A stretch of DNA of 64,000 nt from a virus. The notes beneath the pieces are model-generated. The model ran no database searches, had not been told where the DNA came from, and saw only the letters and a list, made by a program, of their open reading frames with translations. The stretch lies in UHGV virus genome UHGV-0027388. The stretch is one strand, 5' to 3'. Positions 3,426-28,154 of the stretch are shown here, piece after piece (the first letter of the stretch is position 1; each line of letters opens with the position of its first letter). The translations under genes and the position numbers were made by a program.

Positions 3426-4571
3426 ATGGTTTACTTTGACAATGCGGCCACTACAAAGCCCACTGTAGCTGTTTTAAATACGATGACGAATATTTACCTT
3501 CATTCGTGGGAAAACCCGTCAGCGCTTTACACAGGCGCTCAGAACGCATATCAGCTTCTAGAGCATTACAGGGGAAGGATAGCGCATATGCTTCATTGCG
3601 AAGATGGGGAAGTTTATTTCACGTCTGGGGGGACGGAATCTGACAACTGGGCGATTAAATCTCTAGCTGCTCTTGGGGAGAAGTCGGGGAAGAAGCACGC
3701 TGTCTCCACTGCGATAGAGCACCACGCGGTTTTAAATGCGCTGTACGCCCTCGAACTATCCGGATGGGAAATTACATACCTCACCCCCTCAAAACTCGGT
3801 GTAGTCGATCCTGTGGCGCTAGGAAAGGCATTACGGCCTGATACTGCATTTGTATCTGTCATGTATGCCAACAATGAGACGGGTGCTGTGCAGCCAATCA
3901 GGGAGATTGGAGTCATATGCCGGGAGCGCAACATTCCGTTCCATGTAGACGCTGTTCAGGCTGTAGGGCACATACCTGTAGACATGGAATCGGACAACAT
4001 AGACCTGCTCAGTCTGTCTGCTCACAAGTTCAAAGGTCCGCTGGGAGTTGGGGCTTTGGCTGTGAAGGACAACATTCAGCTTCCTCCGTTCATTGTTGGA
4101 GGGGCGCAGGAGCGCAATATGCGGGCGGGGACTGAGAACCTTCCGGGGGTAGCCGGGATGGAACGCGCACTCTCTGACTGCCGCTCCAATTTGCAAGAAA
4201 CAATTCACGAAGTTGCAAATCTGCGTCGAGAGCTGATTACGCAGATTGAGAAAAGAATACCTGGTGCGAACTGGGTACAGACTTCTTCCAACTGCCTTCC
4301 TGGAATCGCCAGTTTTGTCATTGAGGGCGTAGAGAGTATGCCGCTCATTCTGAGATTAAGCGGGGAAGGGGTGTGTGCTTCGGCTGGTTCCGCCTGTAAC
4401 TCAGGTTCCCTTGATCCATCCCACGTCCTGCTGGCAATGGGGTATGACCGTGAGTTAGCGCATGGGGCCGTCAGATTCAGCCTGAGCGAAGATAACACTC
4501 TTGACGAAGTTCTATATACCGTTGATAAATTGTCCTCTATCGTCTCTGATTTGCGTGAAATGATGTGTTGA
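3426..4571 (+). CDS. cysteine desulfurase (class V aminotransferase, NifS/IscS type)
   Basis: 381 aa. The PLP-lysine motif SAHKFKGPLGVGAL and the active-site Cys loop GSACNSG are present. RBS AGGAGGTG upstream. Confidence 0.9.
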   Translation: MVYFDNAATTKPTVAVLNTMTNIYLHSWENPSALYTGAQNAYQLLEHYRGRIAHMLHCEDGEVYFTSGGTESDNWAIKSLAALGEKSGKKHAVSTAIEHHAVLNALYALELSGWEITYLTPSKLGVVDPVALGKALRPDTAFVSVMYANNETGAVQPIREIGVICRERNIPFHVDAVQAVGHIPVDMESDNIDLLSLSAHKFKGPLGVGALAVKDNIQLPPFIVGGAQERNMRAGTENLPGVAGMERALSDCRSNLQETIHEVANLRRELITQIEKRIPGANWVQTSSNCLPGIASFVIEGVESMPLILRLSGEGVCASAGSACNSGSLDPSHVLLAMGYDRELAHGAVRFSLSEDNTLDEVLYTVDKLSSIVSDLREMMC

Positions 4572-5581: not shown

Positions 5582-5656
5582 TGGCAGCGATGGCTGGATT
5601 CAAACCAGCGATGGAGGAGTCAAAGTCCCCTGCCTTAATCACTTGGCTACACCGCT
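5582..5656 (-). tRNA. tRNA-Gln (TTG)
   Basis: The reverse complement folds as a cloverleaf. Acceptor stem AGCGGTG pairs with CATCGCT. Anticodon loop CTTTGAC, T-loop TTTGAAT, encoded CCA. Closely resembles the Firmicute tRNA-Gln pattern. Confidence 0.75.
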
Positions 5657-5846
5657 AAATAGTATTAGCCGCCTCCCTGGATTCGCAGAAGCGGCTAATA
5701 CGTCTCACTAGAGCTGGACTTCTGGTGATCCACCCAGAAACGCTAATTATGCGCATGAATCAGCTGTCCAGCAAAGGCGGGTCATGGTCATTGCACCCAT
5801 GCGCAACCCTTGTACTTCGAGCTGCCCACTAACGCCCCGCATATGA

Positions 5847-5923
5847 TGGTGGACCTTGTAGGTCTCGAACCTACGACCGTGCGGTTATGAGCCGCGTGCT
5901 CTAACCAACTGAGCTAAAGGTCC
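5847..5923 (-). tRNA. tRNA with CAT anticodon (Met or lysidine-type Ile2; the GGACCTTTAGCTCAGTTGGTTAGAGC body favours Ile2)
   Basis: GGACCTTTAGCTCAGTTGGTTAGAGCACGCGGCTCATAACCGCACGGTCGTAGGTTCGAGACCTACAAGGTCCACCA. Confidence 0.8.
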
Positions 5924-6020
5924 GCATTAAACCGAGAGGGCGCATCTTGGTTATCTGGTTTTCTCCCAGACCATCTTTCAGGCGTGCGCCGGTGAGCATT
6001 TATTCCGCTCCTCTCCCGGT

Positions 6021-6094
6021 TGGAGCACCAAGCGGGAATCGAACCCGCGCAATCAGCTTGGAAGGCTGATGTTCTGCCATTAAACTACTGGTGC
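6021..6094 (-). tRNA. tRNA-Gly (TCC)
   Basis: GCACCAGTAGTTTAATGGCAGAACATCAGCCTTCCAAGCTGATTGCGCGGGTTCGATTCCCGCTTGGTGCTCCA. Anticodon loop CTTCCAA. Confidence 0.8.
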
Positions 6095-6201
6095 AAAATG
6101 CCGCCCGAATTGCACGGTCGCCGCCGGAGGTATGTTAAGCGGAGCATTCCATCTAGGCCGAATGCTTATATATGAAAGGAGATGGTTATGTACGCCATCC
6201 G

Positions 6202-6285
6202 TGGTGCCGCTAGTGGGAGTCGAACCCACACGCACAAAGCACAGGAACCTAAATCCTGCACGTCTGCCAATTCCGTCACAGCGGC
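6202..6285 (-). tRNA. tRNA-Leu (TAG), type II with a long variable arm
   Basis: Acceptor GCCGCTG pairs with TAGCGGC. 3-bp D stem. Anticodon loop TTTAGGT. T-arm GTGGGTTCGACTCCCAC. CCA encoded. Confidence 0.8.
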
Positions 6286-6303
6286 AAGCCTGAGTTGAGT
6301 GTA

Positions 6304-6393
6304 TGGCGGCGCAGGTGGGATTTGAACCCACGCACGGTTTCTCCGTCTAGCGGGTTTCAAATCCGCCCCCTTAAACCACTTGGGTACTACGCC
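6304..6393 (-). tRNA. tRNA-Ser (TGA), type II (31:39 A-C mismatch in the anticodon stem)
   Basis: Acceptor GGCGTAG pairs with CTGCGCC. Anticodon loop TTTGAAA. Variable-arm hairpin ACGG-agaaa-CCGT. T-loop TTCAAAT. CCA encoded. Confidence 0.7.
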
Positions 6394-6394
6394 G

Positions 6395-6470
6395 TGGTCG
6401 AAGTGGTGAGACTCGAACTCACGACCTCCTGAACCCAAATCAGGAGCGCTACCAACTGCGCTACACCTCG
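6395..6470 (-). tRNA. tRNA-Pro (TGG)
   Basis: CGAGGTGTAGCGCAGTTGGTAGCGCTCCTGATTTGGGTTCAGGAGGTCGTGAGTTCGAGTCTCACCACTTCGACCA. Only 1 nt separates it from tRNA-Ser. Confidence 0.8.
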
Positions 6471-6486
6471 ATCTATTATATTTCTT

Positions 6487-6563
6487 TGGCGCTATCGGCA
6501 AGGACTTGAACCTGCATCCTCCTGAGTACGAATCAGGCGCTCTGCCATTAGAGCTACGACAGC
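6487..6563 (-). tRNA. tRNA-Thr (CGT), with a bulged T in the T-stem
   Basis: Acceptor GCTGTCG pairs with CGATAGC. Anticodon loop TTCGTAC. T-arm GCAGG-TTCAAGT-CCTtGC carries one extra nucleotide. Confidence 0.7.
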
Positions 6564-6701
6564 ATATATAGCGCCGCCGGAATTGCACCGTGGCTTTCAG
6601 CGTTCGCCGGGGAACTTCCCCAACTGGCCGAAAGAGCCTCCCACTTAGGCGATGAAGGCTTATAAATACATGAAAGGAGAAAGGGCTATCGACCTGCCCT
6701 A

Positions 6702-6777
6702 TGGAGCTGGTGGACGGACTTGAACCGCCGACCATCGACTTACAAAGACGCCGCTCTACCAACTGAGCTACACCAGC
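6702..6777 (-). tRNA. tRNA-like gene, probably tRNA-Thr (TGT), with an imperfect anticodon stem (possible pseudo-tRNA)
   Basis: Acceptor, D arm (GCTCAGTTGGTAGAGC) and T arm (GGCGGTTCAAGTCCGTC) are canonical, with CCA encoded. The anticodon loop is TTTGTAA. Only 3 of 5 anticodon-stem pairs can form (GCGTC/GTCGA). Confidence 0.55.
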
Positions 6778-10890: not shown

Positions 10891-11961
10891 TTATGGCGTA
10901 GCAGAATCGTAGCATCTCTCCAAAATGGAGCACAAATCGTCCCGTTTGGCTTTGTAGAGATGGGAGTAAACACGGAGTGTTACAGTCACATTTTCGTGGC
11001 CTAAACGCTCTGCTATGAGCAGTGGCTGCACCCCCTGGTCTATCAGCATCGACGCGTGAGAATGTCGGAGATCATGCACCCTGATGATCGGCACACCTGC
11101 CTTAACGCAGTTGCGCTTGCAGTGGTTGCGGAGCATAGACGCGCTTGTACCCTCGAATAGCCTACCGCCTGACATTGTGGCGATAAGCGGGGCTAATTCC
11201 TCCTGCAAAAAGTGTGGGATTGATACAACTCTGACGGAGCTTGCAGTTTTAGGCACTCCGATAATTTCTTCTCCGTTCAGCTTTATGTAGGTTTTGGTAA
11301 TGGATATTTTACCGTCGCTCACATCCTCTGGTGCAAGCGCCAGCAACTCGCCCTCACGCATACCCGTCCAAAACAATGTGTCGAAAGCAATCTTCATAAG
11401 CTCGTTTTGCTCACAAGAACGGAATTTGGCATACTCCTGCACGGTCAGAAATTTCATTTCTCGCTTTTTTTCATTTCTCTTTTCGGCGACTGCGTTTGTG
11501 CATGGATTTGACGGCAGTCCATATAACCGGACAGCAAAGTTAAAAATGCTCGATAACCTCGATTTCAACATAGCGGTCGTCGTTTGAGATAGTTTCCCTC
11601 CGGTTATGCGCGATTTCCGGTTTTGCAGATCGCTATACCACTTGCGTACAGCCAGTGGCGTGACGTCTTGCACTGCGGTTTTTCCAAACGCTGGGCGCAA
11701 ACTCTTTTCGACCGCGAATTCAATCGACGAGTATGTCGTCGGCTTCACCCTTGTTTTTGCGTCCTCTAGATATAGGTCAAGCAGCGACGACATGGACATA
11801 GATAGACTTCCATTCATCTTTTGCAAAAATTCACGCTCGTACTGCTGGGCTTCTCGTTTTGTTGGAAATCCCTCTTTTTTCTTTTGTTTTCGCGTCCCAT
11901 CAAATGTAGTATATCTACAGGTCACCTTCCAGCGCCCGTCCGGCATTTTCGATACGCTCAT
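10891..11961 (-). CDS. int: tyrosine site-specific integrase (phage integrase family)
   Basis: 356 aa. N-terminal arm-binding motif MPDGRWKV. C-terminal catalytic residues in HDLRHSHASMLIDQG...LGHENVTVTLRVYSHLY. Confidence 0.9.
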   Translation of the reverse strand: MSVSKMPDGRWKVTCRYTTFDGTRKQKKKEGFPTKREAQQYEREFLQKMNGSLSMSMSSLLDLYLEDAKTRVKPTTYSSIEFAVEKSLRPAFGKTAVQDVTPLAVRKWYSDLQNRKSRITGGKLSQTTTAMLKSRLSSIFNFAVRLYGLPSNPCTNAVAEKRNEKKREMKFLTVQEYAKFRSCEQNELMKIAFDTLFWTGMREGELLALAPEDVSDGKISITKTYIKLNGEEIIGVPKTASSVRVVSIPHFLQEELAPLIATMSGGRLFEGTSASMLRNHCKRNCVKAGVPIIRVHDLRHSHASMLIDQGVQPLLIAERLGHENVTVTLRVYSHLYKAKRDDLCSILERCYDSATP

Positions 11962-23257: not shown

Positions 23258-24148
23258 TTGGCAGATGCAATTATTGAGCGATCCATAGTAAGGAAAATTA
23301 TAGAGAACGCATCTAGACTTCCTTCCCCCTACACATACATTGGAACCGACGGACTTAAACATTGCTCAAGATGCCACGGCCTGAGAGAGCATACCGTGAA
23401 AGTTGATGGTGTATTCAATGGTGTCAAGGTTCCGTGCATCTGTGCTTGTATGCAAAAACGGTATGATGCATCGCTGGAATCACAAAGGAAGAAGCAGCTT
23501 GAATTAAAAATCATGGAATACCGCAGCTTGGGGTTTGCGGAACGGCGCTACGAGTCCATGACATTTGATGCAGATGCCAATGCGGGAAGCAAGTTGTCTA
23601 ACGCAATGAAGCGTTACTGCGACAACTTCGACAAATTCAAGGAGCGCGGATTAGGGTTGTTGCTATACGGTCCGTGCGGAACCGGAAAAACATTTTATGC
23701 GGCTTGCATCGTGAATCAGCTCATAAACAGCGGCAGACCGGCAATGCTTACGAATTTTTCAAGGCTTGTAAATCTGGCGCAAGCTACAAAGTTTGAGAAT
23801 CGTCAAGACTTCTATGATAACTTAGCGCGGGCTGATTTGATTGCCATTGATGATCTCGGAGTTGAGCGTGGAACAGAGTATATGACCGAACAGATGGAAT
23901 TGATTATAGATCAGCTCTATCGAGCCGGAACTCCGATGATTATTACGAGCAATTACAGTCCAGAATGGATGATGAGAGAACAGGAACTCAGACGCAAGCG
24001 AATGTATGACCGTATATTAGAGCGTTGCCATGCAGTCGAGATTGCCGGAGAGAGTAAAAGAATACAAGCGGGAAGGTCAAATCACTGGCCTGTGCATAAG
24101 GAACTTGGATTGAGCGGTGGAGAAGATGCGTCCGGCACGAGAGCTTGA
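23258..24148 (+). CDS. DnaC/IstB-like AAA+ helicase loader with an N-terminal zinc finger
   Basis: Walker A LYGPCGTGKT and Walker B LIAIDDLG. Confidence 0.85.
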   Translation: MADAIIERSIVRKIIENASRLPSPYTYIGTDGLKHCSRCHGLREHTVKVDGVFNGVKVPCICACMQKRYDASLESQRKKQLELKIMEYRSLGFAERRYESMTFDADANAGSKLSNAMKRYCDNFDKFKERGLGLLLYGPCGTGKTFYAACIVNQLINSGRPAMLTNFSRLVNLAQATKFENRQDFYDNLARADLIAIDDLGVERGTEYMTEQMELIIDQLYRAGTPMIITSNYSPEWMMREQELRRKRMYDRILERCHAVEIAGESKRIQAGRSNHWPVHKELGLSGGEDASGTRA

Positions 24149-24314
24149 GAACTGCCCGTTTTGTGGCTCCGAGGCCAAGCTATTTTCACACGAAATAGAC
24201 ACCGGGAAGTTTATTTGGTGGGTGCAATGCAGAAATACTCACTGCCTTGCCAGACAAACGCCTGTCAACAGTGAGAAAATCGCAGTTGAAAGATGGAATT
24301 ACAGGGAGTGTTAA
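24117..24314 (+). CDS. lar: Lar-family restriction alleviation protein
   Basis: 65 aa. ENCPFCGSEAKLF CPFCG motif near the N-terminus plus a second Cys pair. Confidence 0.65.
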   Translation: MEKMRPARELENCPFCGSEAKLFSHEIDTGKFIWWVQCRNTHCLARQTPVNSEKIAVERWNYREC

Positions 24315-25035: not shown

Positions 25036-25226
25036 AGGAATTTATTAAATGCCCGAACGGGCATATTTTGGGAGAACTCAAGAAGGATGGAACCTTTACA
25101 AGTAAGCACAGGCGCAGAATTGTGACCGTCAGAGCTGACGGAGAAATCACTCTTGAGTGTGGCCAATGCGGGAAAATCGTTCAGATTTCCACCCATTACC
25201 CCGTCGGAAGCGGTGATGGAGAATGA
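25032..25226 (+). CDS. zinc-ribbon small protein (64 aa)
   Basis: CPNGH...ECGQCG. Confidence 0.4.
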   Translation: MKEFIKCPNGHILGELKKDGTFTSKHRRRIVTVRADGEITLECGQCGKIVQISTHYPVGSGDGE

Positions 25227-25429
25227 ATTATAGGGGTCAAAAGCACCTGCACCCTCTCCCACCTTGTCAACATTGCGGGATGGATAGTGGAGTGAGGAAA
25301 CAGACAGAAGAACCAGATCGATACTGCGTGATTTGTGAAAGTTGCGGATGGCATACAGCAATGAGCACAGACAAGGCTAAGGCAACCCGCGATTGGAAGA
25401 ACGGAAAACTCTTTCCGGGACGCAAATAA
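25223..25429 (+). CDS. zinc-finger small protein (68 aa)
   Basis: CQHCG...CVICESCGWH. Confidence 0.4.
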   Translation: MNYRGQKHLHPLPPCQHCGMDSGVRKQTEEPDRYCVICESCGWHTAMSTDKAKATRDWKNGKLFPGRK

Positions 25430-25442
25430 AGGCGGCGATTGA

Positions 25443-26003
25443 ATGACCTACGAAGAATGCAAAAAAAAAGGCGTATGCCCGCAGTGCAGGAAAAGGAAGG
25501 CAATAGAAGGATATTTCTACTGCCAAGAATGTCTGGATTACAAGCGCAAGTCCGCAGAGGAATACAGGAGAAGGAGAGGGGCTATGCCAAGGGCCGGAAT
25601 CGGAGAAAAGTATATAGCGTGTCGTCTAGAAAAATTTTGCCAGTATGGCGGCGGGAATGGGACGTGCGACTATTATCTCGATACAGGAATAAGGCGGGTT
25701 CCAATATGCGGAGTTGATTCAGAATGTACCGTGTTTGATCCGATAAGCGATGTAGCCGAAAAAGAAGCAAACAAAATAATTTCTGGGGCTTATTCCGAGG
25801 CTTGTGCGGGTGAAAAGGCGGGAAGAAAGGGCTGTCCTGCAATAAAGGGACACGAAGAAAAAGCGCTTGAGTTATACAAGAGCGGAATGTACGACACGGA
25901 AATTGGATGTGCGCTTGGACTTAGCACAAGCCAGATTTTTGAATGGAGAAAGTCGCTTAGATTGCCAGCAAACACTAGAAGAAGATCGGGCGAAAGGACG
26001 TGA
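25443..26003 (+). CDS. Cys-rich protein with a C-terminal sigma-70 region-4-like HTH (candidate late-gene regulator); A9 tract near its 5' end
   Basis: C-terminal IGCALGLSTSQIFEWRKSL. Multiple CxxC motifs. The poly-A9 at 25460-25468 lies inside codons 6-9. Confidence 0.45.
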   Translation: MTYEECKKKGVCPQCRKRKAIEGYFYCQECLDYKRKSAEEYRRRRGAMPRAGIGEKYIACRLEKFCQYGGGNGTCDYYLDTGIRRVPICGVDSECTVFDPISDVAEKEANKIISGAYSEACAGEKAGRKGCPAIKGHEEKALELYKSGMYDTEIGCALGLSTSQIFEWRKSLRLPANTRRRSGERT

Positions 26004-26233: not shown

Positions 26234-26511
26234 AAACGTGTCAGCACTACAAGAATGAGAGTTCGTGTTTTACTTGTCCATACCCGGATTGCAGATGGCA
26301 AGGGAAAATTGGAGTACGCAGACTGACCATTGATGAAAAAATCCAGAAAGAGGAAGCGTTGACTCTCAAATACGAATTAGAGTATATCGCAAAGAAAGAG
26401 CAGGGGGACCGTACAGGATCAAAGGGGCCATACAGCAAGATGAAATACCATGAAAAACGGCTGAGAGAGCTACGGTCTGAGAAAAAACGGATATATGGAG
26501 AAGCCGAATGA
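26230..26511 (+). CDS. hypothetical protein (93 aa), Cys4 N-terminus, basic C-terminus
   Basis: ORF-table entry. CQHYKNESSCFTCPYPDC. Confidence 0.4.
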   Translation: MKTCQHYKNESSCFTCPYPDCRWQGKIGVRRLTIDEKIQKEEALTLKYELEYIAKKEQGDRTGSKGPYSKMKYHEKRLRELRSEKKRIYGEAE

Positions 26512-26602
26512 GACACTCGGAAACTCCATAGCGCTTCCGCAAAGGAATTGTCGGAGATTATCAGAAATACCTATGAGGTGAAATTTGTTCGGAGATGATT
26601 GA

Positions 26603-27298
26603 TTGAGCGAATATATAAAAAACGGAGTTGCAAGCCGGACGTTCAACGCAGACTGCCTCATAAAAATGAAGGAGTACCCTGATGGTTATTTTGACCTTGC
26701 AGTGGTTGACCCACCATATGGCGGGGGGGGGGGGATTTCACGGCAGGAACGGAACGAGGTTCGGTGGCCGGTTCGAGAAATATACCTCTCAAGAACCGGC
26801 GGCGGATGGGCAGCTAAATTCGGCAAAAAAATTGTGGCTTGGGACAACGCGCCAAGCAAAGAATATTTCGATGAACTGTTTCGCGTTTCTAAGCAACAGG
26901 TCATATGGGGCGGGAATTACTTCAACCTCCCACCGTGCCGATGCTTTATTGCGTGGCATAAAACGAACATCCCGGAAGAATTTACAATGTCGAACGTAGA
27001 GTATGCATGGACTAGCTTCAATGAAAATGCCAAGCTATGGCACGGTTCCAGCGCAAGAAGCAAGAATGAATCCCATTTCCACCCGACGGAAAAGCCACAA
27101 GCTCTCTACGCATGGATTTTCCGGCGATTTTCAAAACCGGGCGATAAAATCCTAGATACACATTTAGGAAGCGGGACAAGCCGAAAGGCCGCATGGGATG
27201 CAGGGCTTGACTTCACTGGATTTGAGATAGATGCGGAGTACTTCCTGAAACAGGAGGAAGCATTTCAGGAATATGCGAATCAAACCACGCTATTTTAG
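26603..27298 (+). CDS. orphan DNA methyltransferase (beta-class N6-adenine/N4-cytosine, PF01555-like) with a coding G12 homopolymer
   Basis: Motif IV DPPY is followed immediately by GGGGG encoded by G12 (26723-26734). Motif I DTHLGSGTS. No partner restriction gene. Confidence 0.85.
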   Translation: MSEYIKNGVASRTFNADCLIKMKEYPDGYFDLAVVDPPYGGGGGISRQERNEVRWPVREIYLSRTGGGWAAKFGKKIVAWDNAPSKEYFDELFRVSKQQVIWGGNYFNLPPCRCFIAWHKTNIPEEFTMSNVEYAWTSFNENAKLWHGSSARSKNESHFHPTEKPQALYAWIFRRFSKPGDKILDTHLGSGTSRKAAWDAGLDFTGFEIDAEYFLKQEEAFQEYANQTTLF

Positions 27299-27348
27299 GT
27301 AGAACGCATATAAATGTACAGTTACAGATTCAACGCAAGGAGGATAAC

Positions 27349-27747
27349 ATGGGTAAAACATACAAGATCATGCTGACTGAGAATCAGCTCAGAGTCATCA
27401 ATGCAGCATTGGAGGAATATTTCCGGGCGGCGCTTGGCCAGTGGGATTTGCTGGCAGAACGTTTAGCTTTCCGTGGTTTCAACGACCACTCCAACAACAA
27501 CATTGAGCTTGTCCGGCGTATGACAAAGAAAGATGCAGCTAGGCGTATGCTTAACGCGGTAGGCGAAATCCTAGTTGATCGCTATGATATTCCCAAGCAG
27601 GAAGAAGATATGATCGCCGTTGATATGTGGCGCATTCTGCGGTGGGAATTGCAACCGGAGTCATTCAAGCGGGAAATTTACAGAGACACATACCACGAGA
27701 GCGATGAACCACCTATCAAGGTGGAGGAGGTATCAGATGACGCTTGA
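27349..27747 (+). CDS. hypothetical protein (132 aa)
   Basis: ORF-table entry. GGAGGA RBS. Confidence 0.5.
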   Translation: MGKTYKIMLTENQLRVINAALEEYFRAALGQWDLLAERLAFRGFNDHSNNNIELVRRMTKKDAARRMLNAVGEILVDRYDIPKQEEDMIAVDMWRILRWELQPESFKREIYRDTYHESDEPPIKVEEVSDDA

Positions 27748-27950: not shown

Positions 27951-28154
27951 ATGTATGAACTGAAACCTTGCCCATTTTGCGGCGGGAGCGCGCTTCTGGG
28001 CACCGACCCGGACGGCGTGACCGATACAGAAGGAAGAAAATGGGCGTATATAGTTGTTTGTAGTGAATGTTGCGCAACGACAGGGCTGTGCGACTCTATT
28101 AGAATGGCGGCAAATAGCTGGAACAGGAGGGCCGAAGATGTACCTACTCTTTAA
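27951..28154 (+). CDS. lar: Lar-family restriction alleviation protein (second copy)
   Basis: MYELKPCPFCGGSALLG is the canonical Lar N-terminus. Confidence 0.75.
   Translation: MYELKPCPFCGGSALLGTDPDGVTDTEGRKWAYIVVCSECCATTGLCDSIRMAANSWNRRAEDVPTL

Follow-up and report, generated by a model that had tools for sequence, protein, structure and literature searches.

The closest described systems are the bacterial phase-variable methyltransferases ('phasevarions'), covering Type III mod, Type I hsdS/hsdM and Type IIG genes with simple sequence repeats. The present work deals with an orphan DNA methyltransferase gene of a temperate gut phage, situated at positions 26603–27298 of the UHGV virus genome UHGV-0027388, the whole analysed stretch of 64,000 nucleotides (nt) being referred to below as the window. 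What this gene shares with the phasevarions is a simple sequence repeat inside the methyltransferase open reading frame (ORF), at which slippage shifts the frame and, as predicted here, yields stochastic ON/OFF expression. The phasevarions, however, are built on chromosomal restriction-modification genes of host-adapted pathogens, usually with 4–5-nt repeats near the 5' end, whereas the window gene belongs to a temperate gut phage and encodes a solitary, Type-II-like enzyme of the beta class, with the tract positioned right after the catalytic motif IV; in addition, it possesses a second selected tract and a loop between the two tracts that is coded in two frames. Since the term phasevarion denotes a methylation-controlled multi-gene regulon of the host, the window gene, known from its sequence alone, is not classed as one.

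In the NgoAV Type I system, a change in the hsdS tract truncates the specificity subunit, altering the target. That tract is a polyG and makes NgoAV a phase-variable Type I methyltransferase (PMC9577141); the likeness lies in a homopolymer length change giving an alternative functional form and not just OFF—a prediction in the present case—while the difference is that a truncated specificity subunit is involved there and two loop sequences beside the catalytic motif, picked by two tracts, are involved here. Concerning phages, hypermutable polyG tracts are known from the receptor-binding genes of Campylobacter phages of the genus Fletchervirus (Sorensen et al. 2021, as cited elsewhere), and contingency loci of T2/T4 have been described in a preprint (bioRxiv 10.1101/2025.10.21.683753). 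Both are phage-borne homopolymers with reversible frameshift variants serving as a bet-hedge, but the genes concerned are of other classes (receptor-binding proteins, rII and others), for which no layout with two tracts and two frames has been described. The polyG tract in the methylase of the Bordetella phage BPP-1 (Liu et al. 2004) is mentioned in passing in the same preprint, where it is not studied further; as a phage DNA methylase with a polyG tract it resembles the window gene. The Campylobacter prophage CJIE1 was considered as a precedent and rejected, its homopolymers being located in host genes and not in a prophage methylase.

The literature searched, which included a long-read gut-phage methylation survey and a 2026 review and covered few subscription journals, contained no account of gut-phage methylases switched by repeats. 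Repeat-driven phase-variable methylases as such are already known, and it is the family-wide recurrence of repeats at one loop, together with the two-tract dual-frame layout, that is new. Based on the comparisons with related loci presented below, the window gene is probably a contingency locus run by slippage at two homopolymers, G12 and A7.

The two tracts and the reading frames of the window gene

The features of the gene, all on the plus strand, are as follows:

26591–26594, plus strand: GGAG, putative ribosome-binding site read from the sequence, 8 nt upstream of the TTG start
26603–27298, plus strand: ORF of the orphan beta-class DNA amino-methyltransferase, 231 amino acids (aa), TTG start, TAG stop; RTGG loop isoform as sequenced
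26682–26999, plus strand: +1-frame ORF crossing both tracts; G11 alleles are read in this frame after the tract; it carries RFGGRFEKY and has the same tail as protein P0145
26708–26719, plus strand: catalytic motif IV DPPY, residues 36–39, invariant in three alignments
26723–26734, plus strand: G12 homopolymer, the primary slippage tract, four GGG glycine codons; G7–G12 at or near the site in relatives
26757–26783, plus strand: RFGGRFEKY motif, +1 frame relative to the ORF, untranslated in the G12+A7 state
26792–26830, plus strand: RTGGGWAAKFGKK motif (RTGG), in the frame of the ORF, translated in the G12+A7 state
26815–26817, plus strand: TAA stop of the third frame, ending G13 and G10 alleles at ~70 aa
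26825–26831, plus strand: A7 homopolymer, the second slippage tract, coding for Lys-Lys-Ile of GKKIVAWD; an A_AAA_AAA heptamer in the +1 frame
27155–27181, plus strand: motif I DTHLGSGTS (binding of S-adenosylmethionine), residues 185–193, with D185, H187, G189 and S190 invariant

The earlier note, made from the letters of the window, had pointed to twelve consecutive Gs right after DPPY, and these are indeed present at 26723–26734, where DPPY is followed by one GGC and four GGG codons (GGGGG in the protein). The next-longest G-run in the 64-kb window has a length of 6, and ~0.003 runs of at least 12 would be expected by chance. GGG is, moreover, the rarest glycine codon of the prophage (11%), with a probability of ~1.6e-4 for four in succession, so that the tract is not a by-product of glycine coding.

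When the length changes were simulated, the 231-aa frame proved open in the present state and closed by a slip of one nucleotide in either direction, as had been anticipated: G11+A7 gives 131 aa ending at 26999, G13 or G10 give 70–71 aa ending at the TAA at 26815–26817, and G12+A8 gives 90 aa. A full-length protein of 231 aa in the RTGG form is obtained with G12+A7, and G9 or G15 likewise lead to the full-length RTGG form; the combination G11+A8 also gives 231 aa, this time in the RFGG form. One detail of the earlier description has to be corrected, namely that the overlapping ORF 26682–26999 begins inside the tract; its ATG lies 41 nt upstream and the ORF passes through the tract.

The A7 tract deserves to be seen as a switch element of its own. 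It shows an A7/A8 polymorphism among near-identical genes and is written AAA-AAA in 65 of 68 non-identical genes, in which AAA makes up 44% of the lysine codons, against 13 expected (p = 6e-43). Judging from this codon bias, the A7 tract is selected as a homopolymer. Both G12 and A7 are thus repeats of slippage-prone length inside an ORF that are not explained by coding. Accordingly, the single-tract ON/OFF switch suggested at the outset holds as far as the G12 tract is concerned, while it left out the A7 tract, the position of the RFGG motif outside the reading frame when G12 leaves the gene open, and the existence of more than two switch states; the latter follows from the second tract and from the conservation of the RFGG motif, which is out of frame in the G12 state.

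Identity of the encoded enzyme

The assignment of the product as a beta-class methyltransferase is upheld by three profile matches and by the arrangement of its motifs. The window protein scores 49.5 bits against PF01555 (N6_N4_Mtase; cut-off 26.7), the match spanning residues 144–214, and matches both phrog_67 (DNA methyltransferase; E = 1e-36) and MTase_II of PADLOC (E = 1e-34), with sub-threshold matches only, to CcrM-like adenine methylases, in NCBIfam. Motif IV is N-terminal to motif I, i.e. DPPY comes first and motif I lies downstream, which is the beta-class order. The start position of the ORF agrees with that of its homologues, the N-terminus of which is MSEY. The target base is probably N6-adenine because the catalytic motif is DPPY (and not SPPY/F) and the nearest solved relatives are CcrM, M.BceJIV-like, MboIIA and DpnA. 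A BLAST search of the locus against the GenBank phage records gave one distant 124-nt match only, and there is therefore no annotated relative among them.

Different tract lengths in the same phage and its lineage

The exact 231-aa protein is present on 26 public contigs. Three of the related loci (L307, L309 and L310) are 100% identical to the window at the DNA level and have G12+A7 at a coverage of 58x and 218x, and G12+A7 is also found in a more diverged phage (L308). Since the identical G12+A7 state recurs in independent assemblies—at least four, with up to 218x coverage—G12 is no assembly accident, which goes against the assembly artefact that the earlier note had named as a ground for refutation.

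The same phage has also been sampled in a different state. A search with the +1-frame product retrieved truncated proteins reading that frame, among them P0145, which corresponds to the sequence of the window phage minus one G; its contig, L313, carries G11+A7, matches the window at 100% identity throughout 2.4 kb on the right side of the tract and has the methylase broken up into two ORFs, of 131 and 103 aa. To the left of the tract, L313 and the window are 96.8% identical (ungapped) over 2.4 kb, a divergence that suggests, from the alignment, an indel or a recombination boundary near the methylase.

The protein cluster at 90% identity contains further in-frame variants of 230, 228 and 233 aa, gene calls of 204 aa starting at the ATG equivalent to 26682, and C-terminal fragments of 103 aa on 21 contigs; N-terminal fragments of 72–131 aa are found in the neighbouring clusters. 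Taken together, the 204-aa calls and the two kinds of fragment occur on dozens of contigs. The pair DAM46634.1 and DAM46633.1 may serve as an example of such a split gene as deposited. In this lineage, about every second assembly has the gene out of frame. Among the close relatives, GGA-G8-T is in frame and both G7-C and GGA-G7-T are out of frame, and in a ~73%-identical sister lineage, G7+A7 and G6+A8 are in frame and G9+A7 is out of frame. The gene body, for its part, has a ratio of nonsynonymous to synonymous substitution rates (dN/dS) of 0.06–0.13 in the window lineage, comparisons of ON with OFF alleles included. Slipped-strand phase variation, as put forward in the earlier note, is supported both by the occurrence of G12 and G11 in the same phage and by the many out-of-frame split gene calls; the comparison across relatives, also suggested there, revealed near-identical genes differing almost solely at the tracts.

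Recurrence of repeats at one position of the gene family

The family was studied using 306 related loci from IMG/VR, GTDB genomes and metagenomes, many of them assigned to gut Oscillospiraceae and other Clostridia and many to Bacteroidales; 235 of the loci are non-identical, and the subfamily is represented by 102 non-identical genes. In the latter, the loop extending from DPPY to WGGNYF contains G/C runs of at least 7 at a density of 3.33 per kb compared with 0.067 per kb in 584 kb of surrounding DNA, a 50-fold enrichment, and dinucleotide repeats are enriched 18-fold in the same loop. The repeats occupying this position are of various types—polyG of 7–12, C12, (AG)5-17 and (AC)8—and some genes have two G tracts.

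Among the 235 loci, 39 of those with G/C or dinucleotide repeats in the loop are out of frame and 32 in frame, while the repeat-free loops comprise 4 out-of-frame and 160 in-frame cases (Fisher p = 1.9e-20). All 41 of the 41 non-identical out-of-frame alleles examined have an otherwise intact body. In 58 pairs with at least 97% body identity, indels were confined to the tracts and to DNA outside the gene, the body being free of them. Two pairs illustrate this well: L255 and L269 show no substitution over ~1 kb with both G tracts differing by one, and L170 and L184 are 100% identical in the body with G7 in one and G9 in the other. The family thus exhibits length polymorphism between near-identical genomes as well as frame toggling with intact OFF alleles. 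When IMG/VR was searched with a flank-anchored pattern that left the tract length free, only two relatives were returned, both of them already known. The tract polymorphism, the recurrent repeats, the intact bodies and the low dN/dS argue for a contingency locus and not for decay or sequencing error.

It should be mentioned separately that L078 and L171 encode the IWGGNYF motif itself by a G8 run, TGGGGGGGGAA, a potential further slippage site in the gene. Two close relatives have a G8 tract, CCTACATGGGGGGGGTACCGCG, in another early gene, at a distance from DPPY of 1441 nt (L161) and 1642 nt (L162) on the upstream side; nothing corresponding to it is present in the window, and related phages have scattered G8–G9 and C8 tracts.

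Loop motifs encoded in two frames

The stretch between G12 and A7 is ~90 nt long and holds two motifs, RFGG and RTGG, both of the form R-x-G-G-x-aromatic-x-x-K-Y. The frame offset between them is fixed in the window lineage, and they are therefore never translated together there. Within eight members of this lineage, 5 of the 13 codons of the RFGG segment that vary when read in its own frame change silently, a change from CGG to AGA included, compared with 0 of 10 in the other coding frame; the corresponding values for the RTGG segment are 5 of 7 and 0 of 7. Family-wide, the ratio of nonsynonymous to synonymous polymorphism (pN/pS) is ~0.3 in the own frame of each motif and >1 in the other two frames. 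For RFGG it amounts to 0.28–0.31 whether or not the motif is currently in frame, and loci in which a motif does not at present share the frame of DPPY show equally low values. As far as such substitution patterns go, each motif is under purifying selection in its own frame.

Concerning the distribution of the motifs, DPPY, both motifs and the body share one frame in only 5 of ~80 two-motif loci. The 120 best database homologues comprise 58 with RTGG only, 24 with RFGG only and 29 with both. Of the repeat-free relatives, some possess a single motif (GGRFKRY, or RTGGTWAAKYG) and others the two in tandem and in frame. A second abundant lineage presents a mirror layout, in which G10+A7 reads RFGG and G9+A8 reads RTGG; its out-of-frame states are G9+A7, G8+A7 and G11+A7.

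In L244, a member of the sister lineage, a 10-nt tandem duplication, CAGATACAAG, is present in the spacer between RFGG and RTGG, ~40 nt after the contig start, and shifts the frame relation of the motifs.

AlphaFold2 models of a two-motif homologue and of the window protein place the loop after the DPPY strand and ahead of the following helix, with a predicted local distance difference test score (pLDDT) below 50 across it. Such a low-confidence loop is compatible with a flexible element that would become ordered on DNA.

Proposed mechanism

Slipped-strand mutation at G12 and A7 would govern the expression of the orphan phage methyltransferase, the two tracts flanking the ~90 nt that code for a presumably flexible loop directly after DPPY. 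Slippage in the course of phage or prophage replication would generate mixed populations of methylating and non-methylating phages and lysogens. The in-frame alleles would methylate the DNA of the phage (and of the host), and G11+A7, G13 or G10, and G12+A8 would represent the OFF states. Such a mixture may be a bet-hedge, with methylation being protective against classical restriction and a liability against methyl-dependent restriction; alternatively, the benefit could consist in a variable methylation of the host during lysogeny. Both full-length isoforms may be active, because each keeps one copy of the loop motif and the repeat-free relatives appear to function with a single copy.

The further-reaching idea that both in-frame isoforms are functional and deliberately alternated is held here with somewhat less than even confidence. 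Similarly tentative is the idea of a three-state frame-toggle cassette, in which polyG and polyA would bracket the mutually exclusive loops RFGG.F.KY and RTGG.W..KYGKK and produce variant A, variant B or no enzyme, the variants differing in activity or target preference, and in which the design—in some versions built on a further G tract, on (AG)n or (AC)n, or on polyC—would recur in a large family of orphan methylases of gut phages of Clostridia and Bacteroidales; on balance this seems rather less likely than not.

Several points weigh against the proposed mechanism. The choice of the segments by motif introduces an ascertainment bias into the pN/pS test, even though positions outside the search pattern are conserved, too, and the selection tests make use of related sequences. 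The RFGG form (G11+A8) was not seen for the window phage and was met only in the ~73%-identical sister lineage (L247, P0010, P0007). The presence of both motifs in frame in 29 of the 120 homologues means that isoforms with a single motif could be weakened or inactive, and the structural models say nothing on the need for either motif since the pLDDT of the loop is below 50. Finally, every tract length is an assembly consensus, the G11 contig (L313) having a coverage of 6.7x.

Alternative explanations

The alternative that fares best is a plain two-state ON/OFF switch in which the frame of the body alone matters. The loop would then be a tolerant linker, the dual-frame motifs a residue of compensated frameshifts, and the A tract a compensating hotspot arising from Lys-Lys-Ile coding. 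The predicted disorder of the loop, the wide variation of the family loops in length and sequence, and the coexistence of in-frame variants GGGG and GGGGG differing in their glycine count all agree with it. What it does not readily accommodate are the own-frame silent patterns in a lineage in which the motifs are never co-translated, the use of AAA-AAA ~5x more often than codon usage predicts, and the fact that out-of-frame motifs are as conserved as in-frame ones; it is accordingly regarded as possible, though on the unlikely side.

Considerably less probable is programmed recoding, by which –1 frameshifting or transcriptional slippage on A_AAA_AAA (or slippage on the G tract) would partly rescue the –1-frame alleles and give high, low and off states. 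Programmed –1 frameshifting of the dnaX type uses A_AAA_AAG. The A7 tract is similar in that the most frequent out-of-frame alleles present it, in their incoming frame, as an A_AAA_AAA heptamer, and different in that no selected downstream stimulator was found at it. In favour of recoding, NNA AAA AAA is read in the incoming frame, from which a slip by –1 leads to KKI(V/I)AWD, the heptamer is almost invariant, the frame states are distributed as –1 (n = 17), in frame (n = 20) and +1 (n = 10), and a 6-bp hairpin is located 5 nt downstream of the A tract. The heptamer does conform to the X_XXY_YYZ pattern of frameshift sites in the incoming frame, but its phasing follows automatically from the Lys-Lys-Ile coding frame. 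Likewise, the excess of –1 over +1 states has not been used as evidence for recoding because the contraction bias of homopolymers explains it equally well. The hairpin 3' of the A tract was rejected as a frameshift stimulator: its stability is no greater than that of synonymous-codon controls (mean z = –0.37; window z = –0.03), its register is not conserved, and alifold gave no consensus stem. Rfam provided no match to a recoding element, the scan of 26300–27500 returning only a chance sub-threshold match to a snoRNA (small nucleolar RNA), and the spacer separating the two motifs, which is not conserved between the sister lineages, contains no slippery heptamer.

The two remaining alternatives may be dismissed as highly improbable: a sequencing or assembly artefact behind the G12 length or its variation, to which the error-prone nature of homopolymers and the low coverage of the G11 contig might point, is contradicted by the identical G12+A7 in at least four independent assemblies (58x, 218x), the identical protein on 26 contigs, the same out-of-frame lengths recurring in many independent assemblies and the 50-fold enrichment at one gene position, with dinucleotide repeats included, and a decaying gene, in which the tract would be a mutational accident in a methylase being lost, as about half of the alleles being frameshifted might suggest, is contradicted by the 41 of 41 out-of-frame alleles that are otherwise intact, by the dN/dS of 0.06–0.13, ON-versus-OFF comparisons included, and by repeats that have recurrently arisen and been maintained.

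Genomic context

The window represents a temperate siphovirus-type element; the public contigs of the phage are ~69 kb long. Two genes of the element should be named here:

10891–11961, strand not given: integrase, from the gene scan of the window
27951–28154, plus strand: Lar-like restriction-alleviation gene (phrog_599, PF14354), 650 nt downstream of the methylase

The other genes recognised in the window are a repressor-like gene, RecE/RecT-like genes, a DnaC-like loader, a RuvC-like resolvase, MazG-like, dUTPase, portal, tape measure and endolysin genes. The methylase belongs to the early/replication module, having the DnaC-like loader, the resolvase, the Lar-like and MazG-like genes, the dUTPase and small zinc-ribbon ORFs as neighbours. 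Neither an endonuclease nor a defence match was detected near the methylase or among the large ORFs of the window that were scanned, with several small ORFs having no assigned function; for this reason the enzyme is considered an orphan, in agreement with the initial remark that no restriction partner is nearby. The Lar-like gene fits an anti-restriction theme in the module. The zinc-ribbon ORFs at 24117–24314 and 25223–25429 (CPFCG.., CxxC) resemble, by eye, the Lar-like ORF at 27951–28154, and several anti-restriction candidates may hence flank the methylase.

Some other observations were made in the window. An A9 run (Lys-Lys-Lys) at 25461–25469, located 18 nt into the ORF 25443–26003 (186 aa, Cys-rich, without a family match), may mark a further point of slippage or recoding within the early module; the ORF 25439–25717 overlaps the same ORF in another frame. 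Eight tRNA genes (Gln, Met, Gly, Leu, Ser, Pro, Thr, Thr) are found at 5582–6777 on the minus strand, upstream of the integrase. The 381-aa ORF at 3426–4571 on the plus strand matches the SspA/DndA cysteine-desulfurase models (E ~1e-123) and phrog_12787, and is probably an IscS/NifS-type gene.

Implications

Phage methylases are common in the gut virome and are usually taken as constitutive anti-restriction functions, whereas many of those in the present family appear to be built as contingency loci. One phage genotype would therefore yield both methylated and unmethylated progeny and lysogens. This would affect host-range prediction, the methylation-based linking of phages to hosts in metagenomes, and gene annotation, the last because such genes are frequently split or mis-called, as seen with DAM46633.1 and DAM46634.1. 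In the two-tract dual-frame layout, in turn, overlapping coding would serve as a switch in an unusual way, the motifs being selected in frames that are only sometimes read.

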